A DNA stretch of 45,830 bases from NCBI GenBank assembly GCA_049297375.1, contig JBAQUF010000046.1:1-45830 (forward strand), in the 5' to 3' direction. Made by a program: the position numbers and the translations under genes. The notes beneath the pieces are model-generated. The model saw only the letters and a program-made list of their open reading frames with translations, was not told the DNA's origin and did no database searches. This document shows, piece after piece, positions 4,303-35,405 of the stretch (positions within the stretch are counted from its first letter, which is position 1; each line of letters begins with the position of its first letter). Source of the DNA: Patescibacteria group bacterium. Lineage in GTDB: Bacteria > Patescibacteriota > WWE3 > UBA101185 > UBA10185.

Positions 4303-5243
4303 CCAATACATTGTTAGATAGATTTAAAGGCTGCTTGATCGGCTTAGCTGTAGGCGACTACTTAGGCTTGCCTATAGAGTTTTGTAAGGCATCCCAGGTT
4401 AAGAACTTCTATCCAAATGGGTTAGAGCCTAGAGCATGCACTAGGGGCAATTCCAGCTATCCGGCAGGTTTTTACACAGATGATACCGCTTTAACAATTT
4501 GTTTAGCGGAATCACTTATTGAAAATGGGTTTGATGTTAAGGATCAATTTCTGCGATATAAGAAGTGGCTAATGGAGGGCTACGCAACGCCGTTTAACGA
4601 CAACGCATATGGTGTGGGTCAAAACACTCTAAGGCAATTACTTACTGCAGATCCGGATAATCTTCCAACAGAGATGAAGAATAACGAGAAACAAGGTGGA
4701 AACGGTGCCTTGATGAAATGCTCTCCGATTGGATTAAGATACTACAAAGATGAAAAAGAGTTGGTGGAAAAGACAATTGCCTCCACAATAATTACACATA
4801 CCAATGAGATCGCTGTTTGGTGCTGTATCGCACATAACCTTTTCATTAGTTATTCCTTGTATGGATATGCTAAAGAAACATTTATTGAAAGGTTCCTATC
4901 CACTTATCAGAATTGCCATGCAAAGCTCCAGGAAGTCTTACAGATGGACTTTAGTACCGTGGACGAGCATTCACTTAGTACATCCGGATATTCGTTAAAT
5001 ACTTTCATTATTTCACTCTATTGCTTCGTAAAAACGGATAACTACAAAGATTGCATAACAAAGGCTATTTTCTTAGGTGGCGATGCGGATACGCAGGGAG
5101 CTGTTGCAGGATCGCTTGCAGGTTGTTACTACGGATATTCAAAGATTCCTAAATCTTTCTTAGTACACCTAATGAAAAAAAGCTATGTTACATCTCTCTC
5201 AGCAAATCTTTGTTCCAGAACCAAGAAAGAACAAGTTAGCTAA
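4299..5243 (+). CDS. ADP-ribosylglycohydrolase family protein (DraG/ARH-like)
   Basis: 314 aa with family signatures: LLDRFKGCLIGLAVGDYLGLPIEF at the N-terminus, FYTDDTALT, and GGDADTQGAVAGSLAGCYYG near the C-terminus. Confidence 0.85.
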   Translation: MTNTLLDRFKGCLIGLAVGDYLGLPIEFCKASQVKNFYPNGLEPRACTRGNSSYPAGFYTDDTALTICLAESLIENGFDVKDQFLRYKKWLMEGYATPFNDNAYGVGQNTLRQLLTADPDNLPTEMKNNEKQGGNGALMKCSPIGLRYYKDEKELVEKTIASTIITHTNEIAVWCCIAHNLFISYSLYGYAKETFIERFLSTYQNCHAKLQEVLQMDFSTVDEHSLSTSGYSLNTFIISLYCFVKTDNYKDCITKAIFLGGDADTQGAVAGSLAGCYYGYSKIPKSFLVHLMKKSYVTSLSANLCSRTKKEQVS

Positions 5244-5526
5244 TAGATTTACCTAAAAGAAACTCAATCAGCCTTATACACGCGTAGGTATAATCATATA
5301 AAATGCTGCCTTTAACTATCAGCTCGGGTCTCCACAATGCTAAACACACTAAGGATATTGAAAATACCAGCCATAGTATTGCTCCTATGGAGAACAAAGC
5401 TATTAGCAACCTATTATTATTCTCAGTTGAAGAAGTTTTTATATTTAGTTTATTTTTATAACCACCTTGTACAGAGTTACCGTCACCAGTTACATTTGTA
5501 GAGAAGTTACTATCTGTTATTTTCAT
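5236..5526 (-). CDS. small membrane protein with N-terminal STNVTGDGNSVQGG motif
   Basis: 96 aa with one strong TM helix (LLIALFSIGAILWLVFSISLVCLALW). Overlaps the upstream 241 aa gene by 17 nt. Shares a motif with that protein's C-terminus. Confidence 0.5.
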   Translation of the reverse strand: MKITDSNFSTNVTGDGNSVQGGYKNKLNIKTSSTENNNRLLIALFSIGAILWLVFSISLVCLALWRPELIVKGSILYDYTYACIRLIEFLLGKSIS

Positions 5527-6235: not shown

Positions 6236-9200
6236 TTTGTACCGCCTTTTCTATAGTTAAGGCACCGAACTTGTCTGATAGTCTCACATACACACGCTCA
6301 AATTCGTACCAAAACCATTTAAGTTTTGGATTTTTTTTAATAAGTCTTTTAATATGTCTCTCTGCGGAAAAGTAATAATTAAAATCATATTCTGAAGATA
6401 CCCGTTCCACATACTTTGTATAAATTCTCCAAACATAAGTTATATAATTTAAATTTCCCGAATTATCACTGCCTATGGCAAAATCAAGAAGATCCTGAAA
6501 CCTCTTATAGTATTCGGGACTTAAATCATATAGAGGGTTTGCAAGAGCTGTTTCGGTTAACTCTTCTTCAAAATCCGATACTTCATGAGCAATAAGTGGC
6601 TCTGGGGCTATATATGCTTTAGCTTCAACAACTTTATTTCTCAATTTTTGAAAACGCCATTTAATAGCCTGTGGATCGTTGTAGATTTTAATAAGGCTGG
6701 TGTTCGCAATATCTTTAGCAAATGGAAATTCCATATTTTTAAAAACATCTTGAAAGTATCCTTTACCAACAACTTTAATTGCTCTGTCCAATTCACTTAA
6801 ATTTTCTAATGCCTGTCTTTTGCTGTACTCCTCAATGTCCTTATCCTCTACAAAGGATTTTAGTATTGGAATTGCACCTTGTAGGTAGTTGCCTTTTTCA
6901 TTTTCCAGAGAAATAAAATGGGTAAAACTCCCTGGAATTAAATATCTGGCATCATTGTCTTTATCGGAGTACACACCATAAACAAAAGTTAGTTCACTTT
7001 CTTTTATATCCGTTACAATTTCTAAAATCGTCATGAGATCCTCAGTGAACGCAAAAACTAAAAAGTCTATAAATTTTTGGCGATATTCTGGTAATTTTTC
7101 TGGAAACAACTTCAATCCTAACCTCATAATTGCACCAAAATAGAAATGGACCGAACTTATTGTGTATGGTCCGGATTTACTTTCCGTATTTTGATATTTA
7201 ACTTTGAATTTTTTAGGATCAATCAGGTCAAGGTTACTTTCAATTGCGAGTTTCATTAACCTTTCTGTGTCTTCAGGCTGAATTACATCTTTAAGGTCGG
7301 ACTCGTTCCTTAGATAATAATCAAATACTTCAGGTTGATATTTTCCTTGACCTGGTTCAAGTAACCTCTTAAATTCCTCATATTTTTTAGTTTTGTTGCT
7401 CTCAAAAGGACTATTAGTAACTTGTGGAACAACCTTTGCAGGCTCCAGAAGAGAGTCCTTTATGGCTTTTTCATATAGAGAAATATCGTTGACCCTCCAT
7501 CTATAGTTCCTTAGAATCATTTCAAACACATGTTGCCCATCCTTAGGCAGTTTTAATATCTCATCATGTATACCTTTCAAGTTATTTTCACTCACTAACC
7601 AAACTAAAATTTCCTCATATGTGTCCCAAACCGCCCAAACATTCTCATCCTTTCCCATATTATTTTTTGCTGCCTTAATAAGTTCTTTCCAAAAGTCAGG
7701 GTCTGCTTCGGCAATCATCAGTGTTATTGATTCTATTAAGTACGATTTTTCAATATGGTAAACATTTCTTAGCTTTGCAATAGCAAATACTACCTGCTTA
7801 AGTAATGTAAGAGTGGGGGTAGCATCTGTTTGTAACGTTTTTTTTATGTTTTCAATGAGTCGTTGGTCACCTTTTTCATCCTCCCCATTGAAGATTGATT
7901 CTTTGTCAATTAACCGCTTTAAAAAATTTGTATCCTTTGAGGATTTTTCTAATAAATACTTGATCGCTTCAGGGGATGTGATTTCATAAAGTCCATGACG
8001 GGCATAAATATCCATACCTTGTTTTATGGCTTCTATGAGGTAATCTATCGTTTTAAAACTATTTGGTGCTGAATCATAACAAAATTGAATAAAGGCTTCT
8101 CTAACTAAGGAGTCCTTATTTATAAAATTTACGGAAAGCTCTTCAACCAGAACTGCATCCTTATAAAAGGTTAATGCTGATAAACAGTGTCGCTGTAAAA
8201 CTCCATTACCATCTTGGGATTTTGCATACTCAACCATTCTTGTTTTCCAGAAAGTCTTTTCTGCATTACTAAGTAAATCTGGTTGCTCTTCCAGTATATT
8301 TCCGATTATTGATATTACATTGCCTCTATTAGTGTATGTTTTTTCTGGCGTGTCTTGTTCTTCAATATCTTTTTTCAAGGATGTAAGTGCTGTTTTTGTA
8401 GCAATTTTACCTAAACCGGTTCTTGCCCAAACGGGAAACCAGATTCCTTTGGATCCATAGGTTTTATACACTAACTTGAATACTTTCAGTTTCGTTTCCT
8501 CTGACTCTAAAGGAACATTTGTAAGGTATTCAGCCAAGTCCTCAGTAAGAGACCTCTGATGTTTCTGCAAAAATTCTACACACCAACTCGTTATTGTATT
8601 TCGTTTGTTGCTTAAGAAGAGGAAGTATAATACTCCAAACCAGGATTGTTTAAGCATCGGAATACCTTTTTGCTTGAAAACAGCATATTTCTCATAATCT
8701 TCTATAATGCTTGAAGAACCTAATAACTTTTCGGCTACTAAGAACTCAGAAAGTCGGTGATGTTTCCAACCCACATATTTCTTTTTAGTTTTGTCATCGG
8801 TTAAAATTTCCATTAACCCTTTATCCGTCAAATATGCTTTCGTGAAGGGATATTTTTTATTTAGTAATATACTGTCAAATATGCTTTCTTCTATCTGATT
8901 GGCATGGATCAATTCATATATAAAGGCAAGTGGTATCAACTCTTTGAAGTTATTTCCATACAGTTTTTGAAACAAATAGGTATAAAAAACGGGTAGCTTA
9001 AATTCTAAATAATTTGTTTGTTCAAGGTATTCAATAAATATATCTAGATATGGTTTGTAGGATATAAGGCTGTTATACACATCCTTAAACCAAAAAGCTC
9101 TAAGTATCTCATTACTGAGGCTTTCTGAGACCCCCTTTTCTAAAAGGATACTTCTAATTTCCGAATTATCTAAATAATTTTCTTTCGTAAAAATTCCCAT
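6228..9200 (-). CDS. large all-alpha/helical-repeat protein with a STAND (NACHT-type) winged-helix-like signature but no P-loop NTPase domain
   Basis: 990 aa uninterrupted ORF. Residues ~125-160 (DKGLMEIL...YVGWKHHRLSEFLVAEKLL) resemble the GLL...F-x-H-x-S-F-Q-E-[FY]-L-A-A motif that follows NACHT NTPase domains. The rest looks like HEAT/TPR-type helical repeats. There is no proper Walker A. Confidence 0.55.
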   Translation of the reverse strand: MGIFTKENYLDNSEIRSILLEKGVSESLSNEILRAFWFKDVYNSLISYKPYLDIFIEYLEQTNYLEFKLPVFYTYLFQKLYGNNFKELIPLAFIYELIHANQIEESIFDSILLNKKYPFTKAYLTDKGLMEILTDDKTKKKYVGWKHHRLSEFLVAEKLLGSSSIIEDYEKYAVFKQKGIPMLKQSWFGVLYFLFLSNKRNTITSWCVEFLQKHQRSLTEDLAEYLTNVPLESEETKLKVFKLVYKTYGSKGIWFPVWARTGLGKIATKTALTSLKKDIEEQDTPEKTYTNRGNVISIIGNILEEQPDLLSNAEKTFWKTRMVEYAKSQDGNGVLQRHCLSALTFYKDAVLVEELSVNFINKDSLVREAFIQFCYDSAPNSFKTIDYLIEAIKQGMDIYARHGLYEITSPEAIKYLLEKSSKDTNFLKRLIDKESIFNGEDEKGDQRLIENIKKTLQTDATPTLTLLKQVVFAIAKLRNVYHIEKSYLIESITLMIAEADPDFWKELIKAAKNNMGKDENVWAVWDTYEEILVWLVSENNLKGIHDEILKLPKDGQHVFEMILRNYRWRVNDISLYEKAIKDSLLEPAKVVPQVTNSPFESNKTKKYEEFKRLLEPGQGKYQPEVFDYYLRNESDLKDVIQPEDTERLMKLAIESNLDLIDPKKFKVKYQNTESKSGPYTISSVHFYFGAIMRLGLKLFPEKLPEYRQKFIDFLVFAFTEDLMTILEIVTDIKESELTFVYGVYSDKDNDARYLIPGSFTHFISLENEKGNYLQGAIPILKSFVEDKDIEEYSKRQALENLSELDRAIKVVGKGYFQDVFKNMEFPFAKDIANTSLIKIYNDPQAIKWRFQKLRNKVVEAKAYIAPEPLIAHEVSDFEEELTETALANPLYDLSPEYYKRFQDLLDFAIGSDNSGNLNYITYVWRIYTKYVERVSSEYDFNYYFSAERHIKRLIKKNPKLKWFWYEFERVYVRLSDKFGALTIEKAVQNE

Positions 9201-27145: not shown

Positions 27146-29394
<2,249 letters not shown>

Positions 29395-29459
29395 AGATAT
29401 TAGACTAATACTAGACGAATAATAGACAAATGTCAATTAGTTTAAACTGGAAAAAATCC

Positions 29460-30275: not shown

Positions 30276-30534
30276 TTTCATACCTCCTTCAGGTTATGAC
30301 TTCCCGCAGGCTGGCGGGTTAAATTAAAGGATTTCGTGACAATTACATCACAATCTGTTACACAGAATCTAGCTATAATCGGCTAGAAAATCCCCTGCCC
30401 AGAGTTGGGCTCTTCTTTCTTCTATAACTCCTCGATCTATATTCTGATCAAGAAGTTATCTAAACCTATGTTAATTTCTTTCGTTTTTCTCCTTTCTATT
30501 TTTGGGTTTTCAGAACTTTTCAATTTTTGAAAAG

Positions 30535-30592
30535 CTCAAAAAACTCGGGAGGTATATTGGCATCTTTCCAGATATTCCAACTACCTCCCAAG
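30535..30592 (-). terminator. hairpin/terminator element copy B (downstream of the Csx3-like gene)
   Basis: Minus strand TAG-TCTCTTGGGAGGTAGTTGG...CCAATATACCTCCC-GAGTTTTTTGAG. It shares the TAGTCTCTTGGGAGGT junction with copy C. Confidence 0.7.
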
Positions 30593-30595
30593 AGA

Positions 30596-30907
30596 CTAAT
30601 CGATCAGATCCCCAGGTAAGTACAGATTACTATGGCAAACTGCCACAACGTATCTTCCTAACTTAGGATCAAACACAGCTACGGTCTCGTACAAGTGTAA
30701 CAGACCGTGGGCAATAGCAACGGCCACAGGCAGGGATGCCGGGCCGTTGATCTTGATGATAGAACCACCAGGCAGTTTGCCAGAGGCCTTCATCCCATCA
30801 ATTCGAACGGTAGCGTCCCGCACAATAACATTATTTTGTGCAGGTTCGTTGGAATTAAATCCAACTGTCAACACATCCCCCTGGATATCAATCAAAAACG
30901 AAGCCAT
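30596..30907 (-). CDS. csx3: Csx3-like protein (CRISPR-associated Csx3/Crn3 cA4 ring-nuclease family)
   Basis: 103 aa. INGPASLPVAVAIAHGLLHLYETVAVFDPKLGRYVVAVCHS parallels, from memory, the Csx3 core (...SGRGPIWLHCFLAHKYHH..FVAVYDPRLGAVVVQSHS of the A. fulgidus protein). Size fits the family. AAGGAG lies 5 nt upstream of the ATG. Confidence 0.72.
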   Translation of the reverse strand: MASFLIDIQGDVLTVGFNSNEPAQNNVIVRDATVRIDGMKASGKLPGGSIIKINGPASLPVAVAIAHGLLHLYETVAVFDPKLGRYVVAVCHSNLYLPGDLID

Positions 30908-31529: not shown

Positions 31530-31650
31530 CTCTACTCCTATAGGATTAACTCAATTCTGCCTATTATAGATAACGACTTGAGCTTTGATTAGCCGCCTCT
31601 CAAAAAGAGGTAATAGCGCTTAAAACAGCACTAGTATCTTTCTTTGAGAA

Positions 31651-31707
31651 AAATAAAAACTTGCAGGAGGTGAGTTGGCACTATTTTAGTTTCCAATCAC
31701 CTCCCAA
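31651..31707 (-). terminator. hairpin/terminator element copy C (downstream of the 672 aa gene)
   Basis: Minus strand TAG-TCTCTTGGGAGGTGATTGG-N16-CCAACTCACCTCC-TGCAAGTTTTTATTTTT. The stem is 8+4 bp with one bulge. Confidence 0.7.
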
Positions 31708-31711
31708 GAGA

Positions 31712-33730
31712 CTAAACCCCAAATGAGCCAGACTCTATGCCCAGTTCCTCTTCAATACTTCTTACAGCATTGATTTGGTCTGGGGTGCATCCTTCAACAG
31801 GCATTTTAACAACCTCATATAGTCCGTTGAACATTCTTAAGGCGAGCTCTTTCTCGCTCACCTTCTCCCAATAGTAATGCCCGTCAGACTTATGTCTGGG
31901 AACATCATCACTATCTTTTTCACGAAGATGCCCATCGGGTTCAATTACCCACCCATCTCCTTGATTAGTTTTACCCCCTCGACGATGCCATACCTCGAAG
32001 TGAACCAAAAGTTCACCTCTATCTTGCTTTTCTTTCAGAACCTTTAAGTTGCTTTCGATGTCCTGAAATCTGGCAAGAGTCTTCTTAGCATCCCGAACCC
32101 AGCTCTCCAGGTTGGGCCATCCCTCTGTAGAGGGCATTATGTCAAGACCACTCTCTTGAGCGATCTCTTCAATTTTCCCCTTTGATATTTCATCAGCCAC
32201 AGAAAACCAAGGCTGGCTTACCAATTGGGAAACCTTGTTTTTTAAGACTTCTGCTTCCCCTCTCAGGGCGGTCCTTTGTTCCAGCTCACAACCCTCTAAG
32301 TGATAAGCTTGTTTTTCTTTTTCAAGCCTAACAAACAACCTCCCACGAGGTTCGACATTATGCTGATCCTGGCCATTCCAGCCAAGATTCAACACGAATG
32401 GATCGGTCGAAATAACTTCGCCAGTTTCCTCATCACTCAAGACAAGATTGCCTTTGCAATCTTGATAAGTACCAACTAAAGTGACAATTCTACCAATCCA
32501 TTCCTTCGGAACATGACCCCAAGGTGCGGTGCCTTTGGCCACATAGAATGCAGGATCGCGCTTGGCATCAGCCATCTTCCAAGTCACCCAAATTTCGGTC
32601 ATTAATTTACCATCTTTGACGAACAGGGCGTAAGGACGTATCTTGTATCCACCTTCTGGGCGGATGAACAAAACATCACCTTCATGAAGAATCACCATAA
32701 CTTCTGGCCAATCGTAGATCATGCCAGCAGCTCCCTCCGCACCTCGCCCTTCGGCGAAGATGATAGGATCACCTCGCCAAACTAAAACCTCGGGATTCGA
32801 CCCGCGGGTGTAAACCCAAGAGGTCGAGACCTTGACCAGGAATCCTGCTTCAGCCTTTGGTGCCTGAGCCAATCCGTACTTTCGCTTTATCGTTTCCTGC
32901 TCCCAGGAGTAACGAGCCGGGATGGTCTTTTCTTCCAAAACCACTACGGCAGCCTTGGTCAAACGGCCTTCAGCTTCAAAGCCCACAAGCGGCAGCTCCA
33001 ACAAACTGCGACCACGTCCACTTTGACCCAACGACACAACCATTCCGGTAGCGCCGTTTGTCAATGCGATACCTTCTTCCACGCGGCCACCTTGCCAGGT
33101 ATAAGCCAGAAGTTGGTTGGAGAGGAAGTTGAGGTTTGGGGCTGTGGTTGGAGAATTAGCCATTGCAGCTTCTGCTACTTTCAGCGCCTGAATGTTTTCA
33201 TAATCTTTCCAGGTTGCCGTCTGCAGACCAGTTGTGTCATACCAAAGTGCACGAGGTTCAAACTTACAACCACCAGAGAGGATAACCTTGATAACATCAC
33301 CAGGCTTCATGATAACAAGACCATCAGTCCAGCTACCAATCCGGCCAGCGTCGCCATAAGCGCCCCATCCTTCAATTATCTTCTCAGGTTTGCCAGCAAT
33401 CGTTTGCCAGCGACCTGAAGTGTTCCTGGTGTACGTGCCTTCGGTGTTGATGCGCACAATCACCCTCTCACTAACTTCGCTCGATCGGGTAAGAACCCAG
33501 AACTTGATTTCAGGTTTACCGTTGCGAGCGGGAATCGTGATCTGCTGCAACTCGGCATCCACGACACGACCATTAGCAGCAACTTCTGGGGGATTCCGAC
33601 GGGAAAAACCGACTTTCTCATAGCGGCGACCCCGACCAGCCTCACCCAAGAAAATCACCTTCCCCAGCTTCTCATCCTGAGTAAGTGGGAGACCACCAAC
33701 CAACGAACCAGAAAAATTGTATGTTTTCAT
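31712..33730 (-). CDS. large protein of unknown function with a tandemly duplicated ~160-residue N-terminal domain (island gene 1)
   Basis: 672 aa G+C-rich ORF with AGAGGA 5 nt upstream of the ATG. Residues ~25-178 and ~231-388 align: LG[EQ][AS]GRGR, TIPAR, EG.GA.G.AG.I..W....VI...GDV, GG.K..P.AL. Coiled-coil-like middle region. No known catalytic motif recognised. Confidence 0.75.
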   Translation of the reverse strand: MKTYNFSGSLVGGLPLTQDEKLGKVIFLGEAGRGRRYEKVGFSRRNPPEVAANGRVVDAELQQITIPARNGKPEIKFWVLTRSSEVSERVIVRINTEGTYTRNTSGRWQTIAGKPEKIIEGWGAYGDAGRIGSWTDGLVIMKPGDVIKVILSGGCKFEPRALWYDTTGLQTATWKDYENIQALKVAEAAMANSPTTAPNLNFLSNQLLAYTWQGGRVEEGIALTNGATGMVVSLGQSGRGRSLLELPLVGFEAEGRLTKAAVVVLEEKTIPARYSWEQETIKRKYGLAQAPKAEAGFLVKVSTSWVYTRGSNPEVLVWRGDPIIFAEGRGAEGAAGMIYDWPEVMVILHEGDVLFIRPEGGYKIRPYALFVKDGKLMTEIWVTWKMADAKRDPAFYVAKGTAPWGHVPKEWIGRIVTLVGTYQDCKGNLVLSDEETGEVISTDPFVLNLGWNGQDQHNVEPRGRLFVRLEKEKQAYHLEGCELEQRTALRGEAEVLKNKVSQLVSQPWFSVADEISKGKIEEIAQESGLDIMPSTEGWPNLESWVRDAKKTLARFQDIESNLKVLKEKQDRGELLVHFEVWHRRGGKTNQGDGWVIEPDGHLREKDSDDVPRHKSDGHYYWEKVSEKELALRMFNGLYEVVKMPVEGCTPDQINAVRSIEEELGIESGSFGV

Positions 33731-33783
33731 TTTTCCTCTTTTCCATTTTTCTCCAAGGGTTAAATTTTACCCAATGGTTGGCA

Positions 33784-33827
33784 CATACATACATAAGATA
33801 TAGGTGACATGCAAGAATGTATGTATG
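33784..33827. promoter_or_regulatory. 11 bp perfect inverted repeat upstream of the 672 aa gene (candidate operator)
   Basis: CATACATACAT (33784-33794) and ATGTATGTATG (33817-33827) with a 22 nt spacer, 54-97 nt upstream of the start at 33730. Confidence 0.4.
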
Positions 33828-33927
33828 CACACAATCATTTGGCAAAATACAAATGAAAATATTTAACTATTCTTGGGATATTTAATTGTAAAAGTACTCT
33901 CTTCTCTCTTACTTACTATCTGGTTTT

Positions 33928-33952
33928 GGTACTGTACTTTTTGTACAGTACC
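33928..33952. promoter_or_regulatory. perfect 10 bp palindrome GGTACTGTAC-TTTTT-GTACAGTACC
   Basis: Read directly. No flanking T-run on either strand, so a protein-binding site is more likely than a terminator. Confidence 0.35.
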
Positions 33953-34357
33953 TAATCAGAAAGCAAATGCTTAACGTACTTTCTCCTTTGTGTAACAGTC
34001 ATAAATCTACTTACTACAAAGGGTAGGTTTTGTAACAAACAAATTGATGTTTATTACCGTGTTTTTAAGTCTCTTTTATTTGAGCCACTCTGTACTCTAA
34101 AAGTACCAGATTCTCTAATTCATTCTTTTAGTCATTCCTAAATTTCTTTGTTAGGAGGATATACCTTCTAACAACCTCATTGGGTAGGAAATATTAGGCC
34201 GACATTTGCTTAAGATAATTTGTCTTAGGCAAGAATCTGTCTGAGATATCGGTAGGTCAGTTTGAGCTCTCTCCTTTATTAAATTAGGTAAAGTACCTAA
34301 AACTTTAAGAGTCTAAAAAGTGTTCCGTATATCTTGGGCAGATTTCTACCTAAGAAA

Positions 34358-34388
34358 CTAAAAAAGCTCGGTTTCTTTAACCCGAGCT
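34358..34388 (-). terminator. hairpin plus T-run inside the ORF-free gap
   Basis: AGCTCGG (34365-34371) pairs with CCGAGCT (34382-34388). On the minus strand it is followed by TTTTTAG. The plus-strand T-tract is weaker. Confidence 0.45.
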
Positions 34389-34502
34389 ATACTTTTAGCT
34401 TTAAACCTTGTTAACTAAGGTTCGGGTAGGAACAAGCTTTAATCATTATATTTTAAATGTCCTCTCTAACTTTCTAAATATATTGTATCTCATAGTTTAA
34501 TA

Positions 34503-34611
34503 TTTGTCAAGTAGTCATTAACATTGTCATTAAGTATTTAACAACCTATATTTCTTGATCGATAAATATATCATACTATAGGTACATATGTTTGTCAAGT
34601 AGTTATTGACA
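34503..34611 (+). promoter_or_regulatory. two copies of TTTGTCAAGTAGT[CT]ATT[AG]ACA, 88 bp apart, upstream of the TrmB-like gene (promoter/operator candidates)
   Basis: Copies at 34503-34523 and 34591-34611 are 19/21 identical. Copy 2 contains TTGACA, followed 14 nt later by TATAAT (34625-34630), which lies 10 nt from the ATG. Confidence 0.45.
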
Positions 34612-34640
34612 GATAATTTAAACTTATATAATCTGTACCT

Positions 34641-35405
34641 ATGTATAAGAATGTTCTTGAAGACTCAGGATTAAAATCCGGAGAAGCAGAAATTTATGAC
34701 TTACTACTCCAGTATGGAGACTCCCCTGCTTCAGAATTGACTTCTAAAACAAATCTTAAAAGAGGAATGATCTATAAATTTTTAGATGACTTAAAAAAGA
34801 AAGCTCTAGTATCTACATACTCCAAAAACAAGAAAACGTATTTTAGAGCTGAGCATCCCCACAAGTTAATGCAAAAAATAGAAGGAACATTACAAGACTT
34901 TCAATCTCAGAAAATAGCTCTTGAAGCGATACTTCCTGAACTTGCAGAAAAGTATAATCAAAAACAACTCAGACCAACGGTTGTTAGCTACGAAGGAATA
35001 CGTGGAATTAGAAAGGTATTCAAAGACATATATGCACCTAAAGATGAACCTGTGTATGGATGCGTAGATGTAGAATCTTCTGAAAAAGCTGTTTCTAATG
35101 AAGTAGTAAAAGACTTAATACCTTTAAGAATCAGAAACAACGTAAAGGCAATTAGCTTTATTGGCAAATCTAGACTAGGAGAGCAAATTCATGCTAAGGA
35201 TAAAGAATCTTTAAGAGAGAGTATCCTCTTAGATAAAAGGAGGTATCCAATACCTGCAGAAATTGATGTTTATGAAGATAAGGTAGCACTATTAAGCTTT
35301 GAAAAAGGAAACTTTTCTGGGATATTGATTCAAAACAAGGATATTGCCACATCCTTAAAAACAATATTTAAATTAGCTTTTAGAAAATCTGAGGTATGGG
35401 ATTAG
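34641..35405 (+). CDS. TrmB-family transcriptional regulator
   Basis: 254 aa. The N-terminal wHTH LEDSGLKSGEAEIYDLLLQYGDSPASELTSKTNLKRGMIYKFLDDLKKKALV is typical of TrmB. Confidence 0.85.
   Translation: MYKNVLEDSGLKSGEAEIYDLLLQYGDSPASELTSKTNLKRGMIYKFLDDLKKKALVSTYSKNKKTYFRAEHPHKLMQKIEGTLQDFQSQKIALEAILPELAEKYNQKQLRPTVVSYEGIRGIRKVFKDIYAPKDEPVYGCVDVESSEKAVSNEVVKDLIPLRIRNNVKAISFIGKSRLGEQIHAKDKESLRESILLDKRRYPIPAEIDVYEDKVALLSFEKGNFSGILIQNKDIATSLKTIFKLAFRKSEVWD

Follow-up and report, generated by a model that had tools for sequence, protein, structure and literature searches.

P0001 is a 672-residue protein encoded on the minus strand (31712..33730) of a 45,830-nucleotide contig from a Patescibacteria group bacterium (JBAQUF010000046.1, assembly GCA_049297375.1; the whole contig is referred to as the window). 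Its two N-terminal domains, D1 and D2, arose when an autonomous, all-beta unit of ~195 residues was duplicated in tandem in a single, old event; D1 is predicted with confidence, and neither known families nor solved folds include a detectable relative of it. The intact gene was acquired horizontally, and its island lies at a conserved hotspot; as stated in the original prediction, it is the first and largest gene of that island, which is rich in guanine and cytosine (GC). Accessory proteins built from several shuffled domains, one of them sensor-like and duplicated, are familiar from hotspot islands; the domain found here and its associations are new. We consider it reasonably probable that P0001 acts as a non-enzymatic component in conflict between phages or mobile elements and their hosts.

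Duplication and conserved loops in P0001

When residues 1–201 were compared with the rest of P0001 by BLASTP, residues 23–198 aligned with residues 230–403 at 32% identity over 185 columns (E 2e-16), and no further internal match with E <3 was obtained. Smith-Waterman alignment of D1 with D2 gave a score of 177 vs 33.6 ± 5.6 (maximum 64) for 1000 shuffles (z = 25.5), and D1 scored at background (34) against residues 401–672. By both methods residues 1–198 are homologous to residues 203–400, and the tandem duplication that had been proposed for 32567–33658 (residues 25–388) is real. The four motif blocks cited in its support align exactly as given; the proposed repeat length of ~160 residues was too short, as the unit spans ~195 residues and three short N-terminal strands repeat as well. 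A profile built from the first copy matches the second-copy region in all two-domain relatives (E 1e-37 to 2e-6), and the copies cross-match reciprocally. Maximum-likelihood analysis of 88 copies places every second copy in one clade (support 100/96); the other clade unites first copies with stand-alone proteins of ~180 residues, which are of the D1 type. That the second copies form a single clade indicates a single duplication, before the family diversified.

The modules of P0001 are arranged in the order D1-D2-D3-helical linker-CT, all encoded on the minus strand. D1, the first copy (residues 1–198; 33137..33730), is followed by the diverged second copy D2 (residues 203–400; 32531..33124), by the small beta domain D3 (residues 401–472; 32315..32530), at or near which lies a recombination breakpoint with respect to the closest relative, by a helical linker designated the CC module (residues 473–572; 32015..32314), and by CT (residues 573–672; 31715..32014), which comprises five strands and one helix and carries the motif WHRRGG...GDGWVIxPDG. 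The AlphaFold model of the whole protein has a mean predicted local distance difference test (pLDDT) of 90.1 and a predicted template modeling score (pTM) of 0.70; for D1 modeled alone these values are 94.3 and 0.88. D1 and D2 are each predicted to form ~15 strands followed by a helix, and the rest of the model consists of a beta domain (415–469), helices (480–570) and a five-strand-plus-helix domain (575–663), in agreement with the earlier description of these regions. D1 is basic (pI 9.5) and CT acidic (pI 5.0). A secreted or membrane location was considered and rejected; P0001 contains no hydrophobic or transmembrane segment and is predicted to be cytoplasmic. The 2016 soil runs differ within the gene at 32640 and 33319, and both differences are non-synonymous (I364T and L138F).

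Conservation in D1 is concentrated in two Gly/Arg-rich beta-hairpin loops. The first, LGExGRGR (residues 28–35), contains the invariant GRGR encoded by the G32-R33-G34-R35 codons (33626..33637, minus strand); the second, GAxGDAGRIGxW (residues 123–134; 33329..33364, minus strand), is likewise invariant and reads GAYGDAGRIGSW in P0001. Further conserved features are Y100-x-R/K and a PGD turn, and R33, R35, R130, W134, D136, and D145 are invariant among full-length relatives (42/42). The GRGR loop is as invariant in D2 as in D1, while the second loop of D2 is relaxed, with the Arg equivalent to R130 present in 18/42 and the Trp in 32/42; in P0001 this loop is GAEGAAGMIYDW and is degenerate (A334, M337, Y339). 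D1 and D2 of P0001 can both be aligned with 24 further D1/D2 sequences and with eight phage proteins, and the features of the D1 family (both loops, the YTR motif, and the all-beta unit) are present. We infer that the two loops together build a phosphate-binding site, with copy 2 as a degenerate half. An alternative in which D1 is an enzyme, e.g., a new phosphodiesterase, ring nuclease or nucleotide-modifying domain, appears very unlikely: the invariant E30, D136, and D145 in combination with R33, R35, R130, and Y100, the resemblance of the glycine-rich loops to typical nucleotide sites, and the ring-nuclease genes in the neighborhood are compatible with it, but no catalytic family or fold was matched, no His/Cys/metal-type motif is present, and decay of the second D2 loop in an otherwise conserved protein fits binding as well as catalysis.

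The domain had been described as unrecognized, which was borne out by searches of P0001 against Pfam, NCBIfam, PADLOC, and PHROGs, against PDB sequences, and with Foldseek, all without a match. Neither sequence nor profile searches of PDB, queried with the whole protein, D1, CC plus CT, and CT, yielded anything significant; matches below threshold were to a cellulase (E 0.005), ricin-B-type lectin chains, and the PARP2 WGR domain (E ~3). Foldseek comparison of the full model with PDB and BFVD returned no match at E ≤ 1e-3, and the best PDB match of the D1 model had an E value of 0.85 and a template modeling (TM) score <0.2. No curated family, solved structure or description of D1 or CT in the literature library searched was found. 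In Pfam, NCBIfam, PADLOC, and PHROGs scans of relatives with alternative tails and of CT-only relatives, helicase cores were the only domains detected, and an Rfam scan of the window identified no family and no hammerhead.

Several specific assignments were considered and rejected. A CARF/SAVED sensor is at odds with the all-beta model and with the lack of PADLOC, Pfam, and Foldseek PDB matches. P0001 is not itself Csx3/Crn3, as neither PF09620, TIGR02579 nor the PADLOC Csx3 model matches it and only the neighboring protein P0003 does so (PADLOC 3e-23). A known phage cyclic-nucleotide sponge (Tad1, Tad2, Acb2, and similar) was discarded on the basis of the same D1 Foldseek search and the absence of a PHROGs match. 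CT was not identified as a WGR domain (PF05406) in hmmscan of 23 CT sequences, its profile reached the PDB PARP2 entry only at E 2.6–3.6, and the class holds almost no WGR genes. Nor does CT correspond to the HrpA C-terminal region DUF3418 (PF11898), since the CT profile has no Pfam match and neither P0001 nor the CT sequences match DUF3418; a single helicase, P0171, shows a weak DUF3418 match overlapping CT (E 0.002; 17 bits vs a cut-off of 25).

Shuffled modules in a family shared with phages

A profile search of 1.84 billion representatives, clustered at 50% identity, retrieved 1007 proteins at E ≤ 1e-3, and a family of ~1000 such representatives without annotation is now defined. Architecture was counted for 189 of the family sequences. 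D1 occurs alone in 42/189, and the complete D1-D2-D3-CC-CT arrangement, with or without an extra tail, in 58/189; D1-D2-D3 is joined to unrelated tails in ~17/189, and CT stands behind unrelated N-termini in ~35/189. Six proteins of the CT-only group (1270–1710 residues) are DEAD/Helicase_C/HA2 helicases of the HrpA-like DEAH type, and the other members of that group contain no Pfam domain. CT ends not only these helicases but also the third protein (Zn-ribbon) of MoxR/vWA-like clusters, and is a separate, shuffled unit. Shared, shuffled modules connect phages, cargo islands of the Candidate Phyla Radiation (CPR), HrpA-like helicases, MoxR/vWA-like clusters, and orphan Csx3-AAA ring-nuclease genes.

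Identity between P0001 and its relatives varies sharply along the protein. P0001 and its closest relative, P0005, are 88% identical in D1 and D2, 54% in D3, 37% in CC, and 46% in CT; comparison with P0007 gives the reverse pattern, i.e., 53% in D1 and D2 and 77% in CT. P0001 is thus a mosaic. The element that harbors the closest relative encodes a primase and a serine recombinase and lacks Csx3. Many relatives extend beyond CT by a tail consisting of SG..SP.IG.GW.L, a Pro/Ala-rich linker, and a terminal ALxALRxKFGKK, which is also found on helicase-CT proteins and which P0001 lacks. The extreme C-terminal peptide following SP.IG.GW.L reads ALxALRxKFGKK or DLSKLFGG..RR (P0016, P0022, P0029, P0139, P0146, P0174, and others) and looks like a docking peptide. 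On a 1.27-Mb Parcubacteria contig, the family gene (L021, 7007–9413) is a pseudogene with a stop codon and frameshifts.

D1-like proteins are also encoded on ten IMG/VR contigs of 16–284 kb. Most of them are 170–220 residues long, with two longer examples (~290 and 311 residues), and they retain MKxYN, LGExGRGR, YTR, and GAxGDAGRIGxW. Open reading frames (ORFs) on six of the contigs match RIIA/RIIB, DnaB-like helicase, RecT, UvsX, RNase H, tape-measure protein, and the large terminase subunit, which identifies the contigs as genuine phages. The families found twice near phage D1 are RIIB, DnaB-like helicase, and DNA methyltransferases, with no structural genes among them; tape-measure and terminase genes occur singly elsewhere in these stretches. 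CT had no match on IMG/VR viral contigs, and a tblastn search of INPHARED phages with D1 was also negative. Stand-alone D1 is found in other CPR islands as well. The occurrence of D1 alone in phages, together with import of the whole gene as cargo, suggests that P0001 is probably part of a virus-host conflict system.

Because its domains are all-beta and D1 relatives lie on phage contigs, P0001 could in principle be what remains of a gene for a structural component of the phage virion, for instance a beta-rich fiber or decoration protein. This origin is extremely unlikely: there is no BFVD or PHROGs match, the phage copies are ~180 residues long and their twice-seen neighbors are the nonstructural families named above, the island contains no other structural genes, the gene is intact, and CT is common to helicases.

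Foreign origin and the TrmB-adjacent slot

The island extends from ~29.44 to 34.2 kb of the window and has a GC content of 0.42–0.48, as compared to ~0.33 for the host. GC content at third codon positions (GC3) is 0.47 for the P0001 gene and 0.42–0.48 for the four island genes vs 0.18–0.29 for host genes, and the family gene exceeds host GC3 in every other locus tested (e.g., 0.91 vs 0.41, 0.76 vs 0.30–0.48). The possibility that amino acid content alone accounts for the composition was rejected because GC3 is also high. A single copy of the gene is present in the source genome (791 kb, 94% complete); the family is absent from 36 related genomes (13 of the same genus and 23 of the same family), and 11 of the 401 genomes drawn from across the phylum carry modules of it. 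An assembly chimera was ruled out, since contigs of independent soil metagenome runs from two studies cross both island junctions. The flanks are conserved within the genus, and neither an integrase nor a tRNA was found at the island.

Upstream of P0001 and divergent from the island lies a host gene for a TrmB-like regulator (34641..35405, plus strand), which marks the cargo slot and is the one confident TrmB gene in the source genome. Upstream flank of ≥4 kb is available for 18 loci, and in 14 of them a TrmB-like regulator lies within 8 kb of the family gene; in most cases it is divergent and has a large methyltransferase-type protein behind it. TrmB has a background frequency of ~3.5%, and the association is significant even with a generous background (binomial p <1e-8). 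In all-against-all BLAST of neighboring ORFs, the family itself, TrmB, and the large methyltransferase-type protein were the only recurring groups. Genomes of the same genus carry different, unrelated cargo in the same slot. Core-gene-flanked accessory or defense hotspots without mobility genes likewise show foreign composition, absence in close relatives, and cargo that varies within a genus; in contrast to these, the P0001 slot is associated with a single regulator family (TrmB-like) even among Patescibacteria that are very distantly related, and its cargo is consistently GC-richer than the host. The slot is a well-documented case of a TrmB-adjacent site collecting GC-rich foreign genes in Patescibacteria.

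The slot upstream of TrmB, holding GC-rich foreign genes, recurs in distant Patescibacteria (33731–35405 in the window; loci L001, L012, L017, L019–L024, L030, L038, and L041), and TrmB is backed in the slot loci by a convergent protein of 600–900 residues with a methyltransferase-type C terminus. In a comparison of 27146–29436 of the window with three same-genus genomes (L035–L037), the tgt(-Fic) and TrmB-methyltransferase blocks stand in swapped order, and the island is located exactly at the junction of this rearrangement.

HrpA-like DEAH/RHA helicases on CPR cargo islands occupy the same kind of TrmB-adjacent, GC-rich island as P0001. The helical linker and CT are held in common (43–52% identity over 111–151 residues); P0001 differs in having no helicase core and a duplicated D1 as its head. 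Sharing of CT with DEAH/HA2 helicases, and the weak DUF3418 match that overlaps it in one of them, could be read as the mark of a housekeeping factor in RNA metabolism or ribosome association, with CT as nothing more than the C-terminal portion of a native pathway of HrpA-type helicases. Such a role is highly improbable given the scarcity of the family described above (absence from the 36 same-family genomes and modules in only 11/401), GC3 that is foreign everywhere, the location of the helicases themselves in GC-rich islands of the same kind, and a CT profile that matches neither DUF3418 nor any other Pfam family.

Neighboring genes and the possible role of P0001

Downstream of P0001, on the same strand, the island encodes P0002 (30921..31529), the P-loop nucleoside triphosphatase (NTPase) half of Csx3-AAA; P0003 (30596..30907), a Csx3/Crn3-like ring-nuclease domain; and P0004 (29622..30281), the fourth island gene, whose product of 219 residues has no family match. 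A hairpin with a U-tract (31645..31712, minus strand; −22 kcal/mol, z −3.6) starts one base past the P0001 stop codon and is a probable intrinsic terminator. Related hairpins with U-tracts follow Csx3 (30530–30596) and P0004 (29535–29605), also on the minus strand, and the three range from −22 to −27 kcal/mol (z −3.6 to −5.5). These related terminator-like hairpins suggest three transcription units of common origin and, as P0001 has its own terminator, it is probably not in an operon with AAA and Csx3. At the end of the ORF-free gap of 910 bp that precedes P0001, 35–115 nt before the start codon, lies a long AT-rich hairpin (33765..33844, minus strand), for which only spurious miRNA-type Rfam matches were obtained. 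An 18-nt AU-rich complementarity is present between 31642–31659, just after the terminator, and 33740–33757 in the 5′ leader; for the P0001 gene and nine relatives, duplex energies of such 5′/3′ pairing are no better than those of shuffles.

Csx3 is the Crn3 ring nuclease, and Csx3-AAA and AAA-Csx3 are accessory proteins of type III CRISPR (PMC7371418). Csx3-AAA genes adjoin P0001 and co-occur with CT-bearing proteins in four islands; P0001 differs from them in having no Csx3 or P-loop domain, in forming a separate transcription unit, and in belonging to a genome without CRISPR-Cas. In these four independent islands, an AAA-Csx3 gene, either split or fused, lies on the same strand within ~8 kb of a CT protein, and the CT proteins bear three different heads: D1-D2-D3 in the window, a helicase in L030, and a Zn-ribbon in G425 (L053) and G037 (L054), where MoxR-like and vWA-like genes lie upstream. 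In the sample of 401 genomes, CT is present in seven, a P0002-like NTPase in nine, and both in three (3/7 vs 6/394), which is significant by Fisher's test (p 2.6e-4, or 5e-3 without the query genome). Among 133 neighboring ORFs of the 22 other loci, the recurrent Pfam families are limited to TrmB (5), NUDIX (3), and Cas_csx3 (2).

A functional link between P0001 and the Csx3 and ATPase genes of its island finds mixed support. Proximity of CT to AAA-Csx3 in four islands and their non-random co-occurrence favor it, while the separate terminator, the 20/23 loci without Csx3/AAA, and the occurrence of D1 alone in phages do not. The same observations bear on a somewhat unlikely alternative, namely that P0001 is independent cargo acting alone, for example as a phage-derived anti-defense or host-takeover factor, and that its adjacency to AAA and Csx3 reflects shared parking in the TrmB slot. 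Its own terminator, the lack of conserved neighbors in 20/23 loci, stand-alone D1 in early or replication regions of phages, a closest relative in a primase/serine-recombinase element that lacks Csx3, and unrelated cargo in the same slot of same-genus genomes would all be expected of independent cargo; the recurrence of CT proteins with three heads beside split or fused AAA-Csx3 and the significant co-occurrence at the genome level (at either p value) would not.

MoxR-vWA-centered ternary conflict systems with a variable third component were reportedly described by Kaur, Burroughs, Iyer and Aravind in eLife in 2020. In L053 and L054, the CT protein comes directly after MoxR-like AAA+ and vWA/MIDAS-like genes, identified by their motifs, and so takes the position of the third component. 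The P0001 island differs in that its four genes (for P0001, the Csx3-type NTPase, Csx3, and P0004) include neither MoxR nor vWA, and the head of P0001 is D1-D2-D3 and not a Zn-ribbon. The three-gene block of these two distant genomes (L053, 8505–13505, plus strand; L054, 4535–10851, minus strand) consists of a MoxR-like AAA+ protein (413 and 402 residues, 70% identical), a vWA/MIDAS-like protein (558 and 587 residues, 60% identical), and a Zn-ribbon protein ending in CT (653 and 895 residues, 44% identical). In both loci an AAA-Csx3 fusion is encoded a few genes upstream of the block.

P0001 had been put forward as a prime candidate for a sensor or effector. No catalytic or toxic effector domain was found in it, so the effector half of this proposal is unsupported; a sensor or binding head is suggested by the conserved Gly/Arg loops. 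In the mechanism that we favor, D1-D2 would be an intramolecular pseudo-dimer imitating the homodimer of a stand-alone domain, and its Arg/Gly loops and aromatic residues would bind a ligand that carries phosphate, be it a nucleotide signal or a nucleic acid, with copy 2 serving as a degenerate half-site. This part is tentative, and we would put it below an even chance. The proposed logic is reminiscent of two sensors of cOA/CBASS signaling, CARF dimers and SAVED (a tandem fusion of two CARF-like units), in which a sensing domain that is homodimeric alone becomes, when fused, a pseudo-dimer with a diverged half; for P0001 the pseudo-dimer is only conjectured. As in those systems, variable output modules are attached and a ring nuclease is adjacent. 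SAVED and CARF differ from D1 in their Rossmann-like alpha/beta fold, with no relationship in sequence or fold, and P0001's genome lacks a cyclic-oligonucleotide synthase. CT may serve in docking or assembly, linking the various heads to one common partner, possibly the AAA-Csx3 protein next door, a proposal that we hold at a similar or marginally higher level of confidence than the pseudo-dimer.

Several observations weigh against the favored explanation, which as a whole has, in our estimate, about an even chance of being correct. The pseudo-dimer is a conjecture, no PADLOC model matches P0001, and the invariant acidic residues E30, D136, and D145 of D1 leave room for an enzymatic role. No Csx3/AAA gene is nearby in 20/23 loci holding relatives, and with one such slot per small genome, co-location may merely reflect shared parking. 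The 94%-complete source genome contains no SMODS or Csm1/Cas10 synthase gene, and the MoxR and vWA labels in L053 and L054 derive from sequence motifs only. A more far-reaching version of the favored explanation, which we regard as distinctly unlikely, is that D1 would belong to a new class of domains that bind nucleotide signals and are employed by phage and host alike in their conflict. When alone, as in phages and islands, it would serve as a sponge that captures an alarm molecule; duplicated and joined to CT, it would cooperate with AAA-Csx3 in a signaling or counter-signaling unit, independent of CRISPR and lacking a synthase, that would be exchanged among CPR bacteria via a dedicated, TrmB-guarded slot. 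The two invariant Arg/Gly loops, the stand-alone form, and the putative docking tail offer a handle on the role of CRISPR-less ring nucleases in ultra-small bacteria.

Two further observations concern AAA-Csx3 genes in other slots. Genome G002, which lacks the 672-residue family, encodes in its TrmB-upstream slot a 461-residue AAA-Csx3 fusion (L037, 6073–7458, minus strand) that is 31% identical to P0002. In L030, the AAA-Csx3 fusion upstream of the helicase-CT gene is flanked by genes for two paralogous small proteins without a family match (5122–5472 and 7287–7628; 116 and 113 residues), which are 26% identical to each other.

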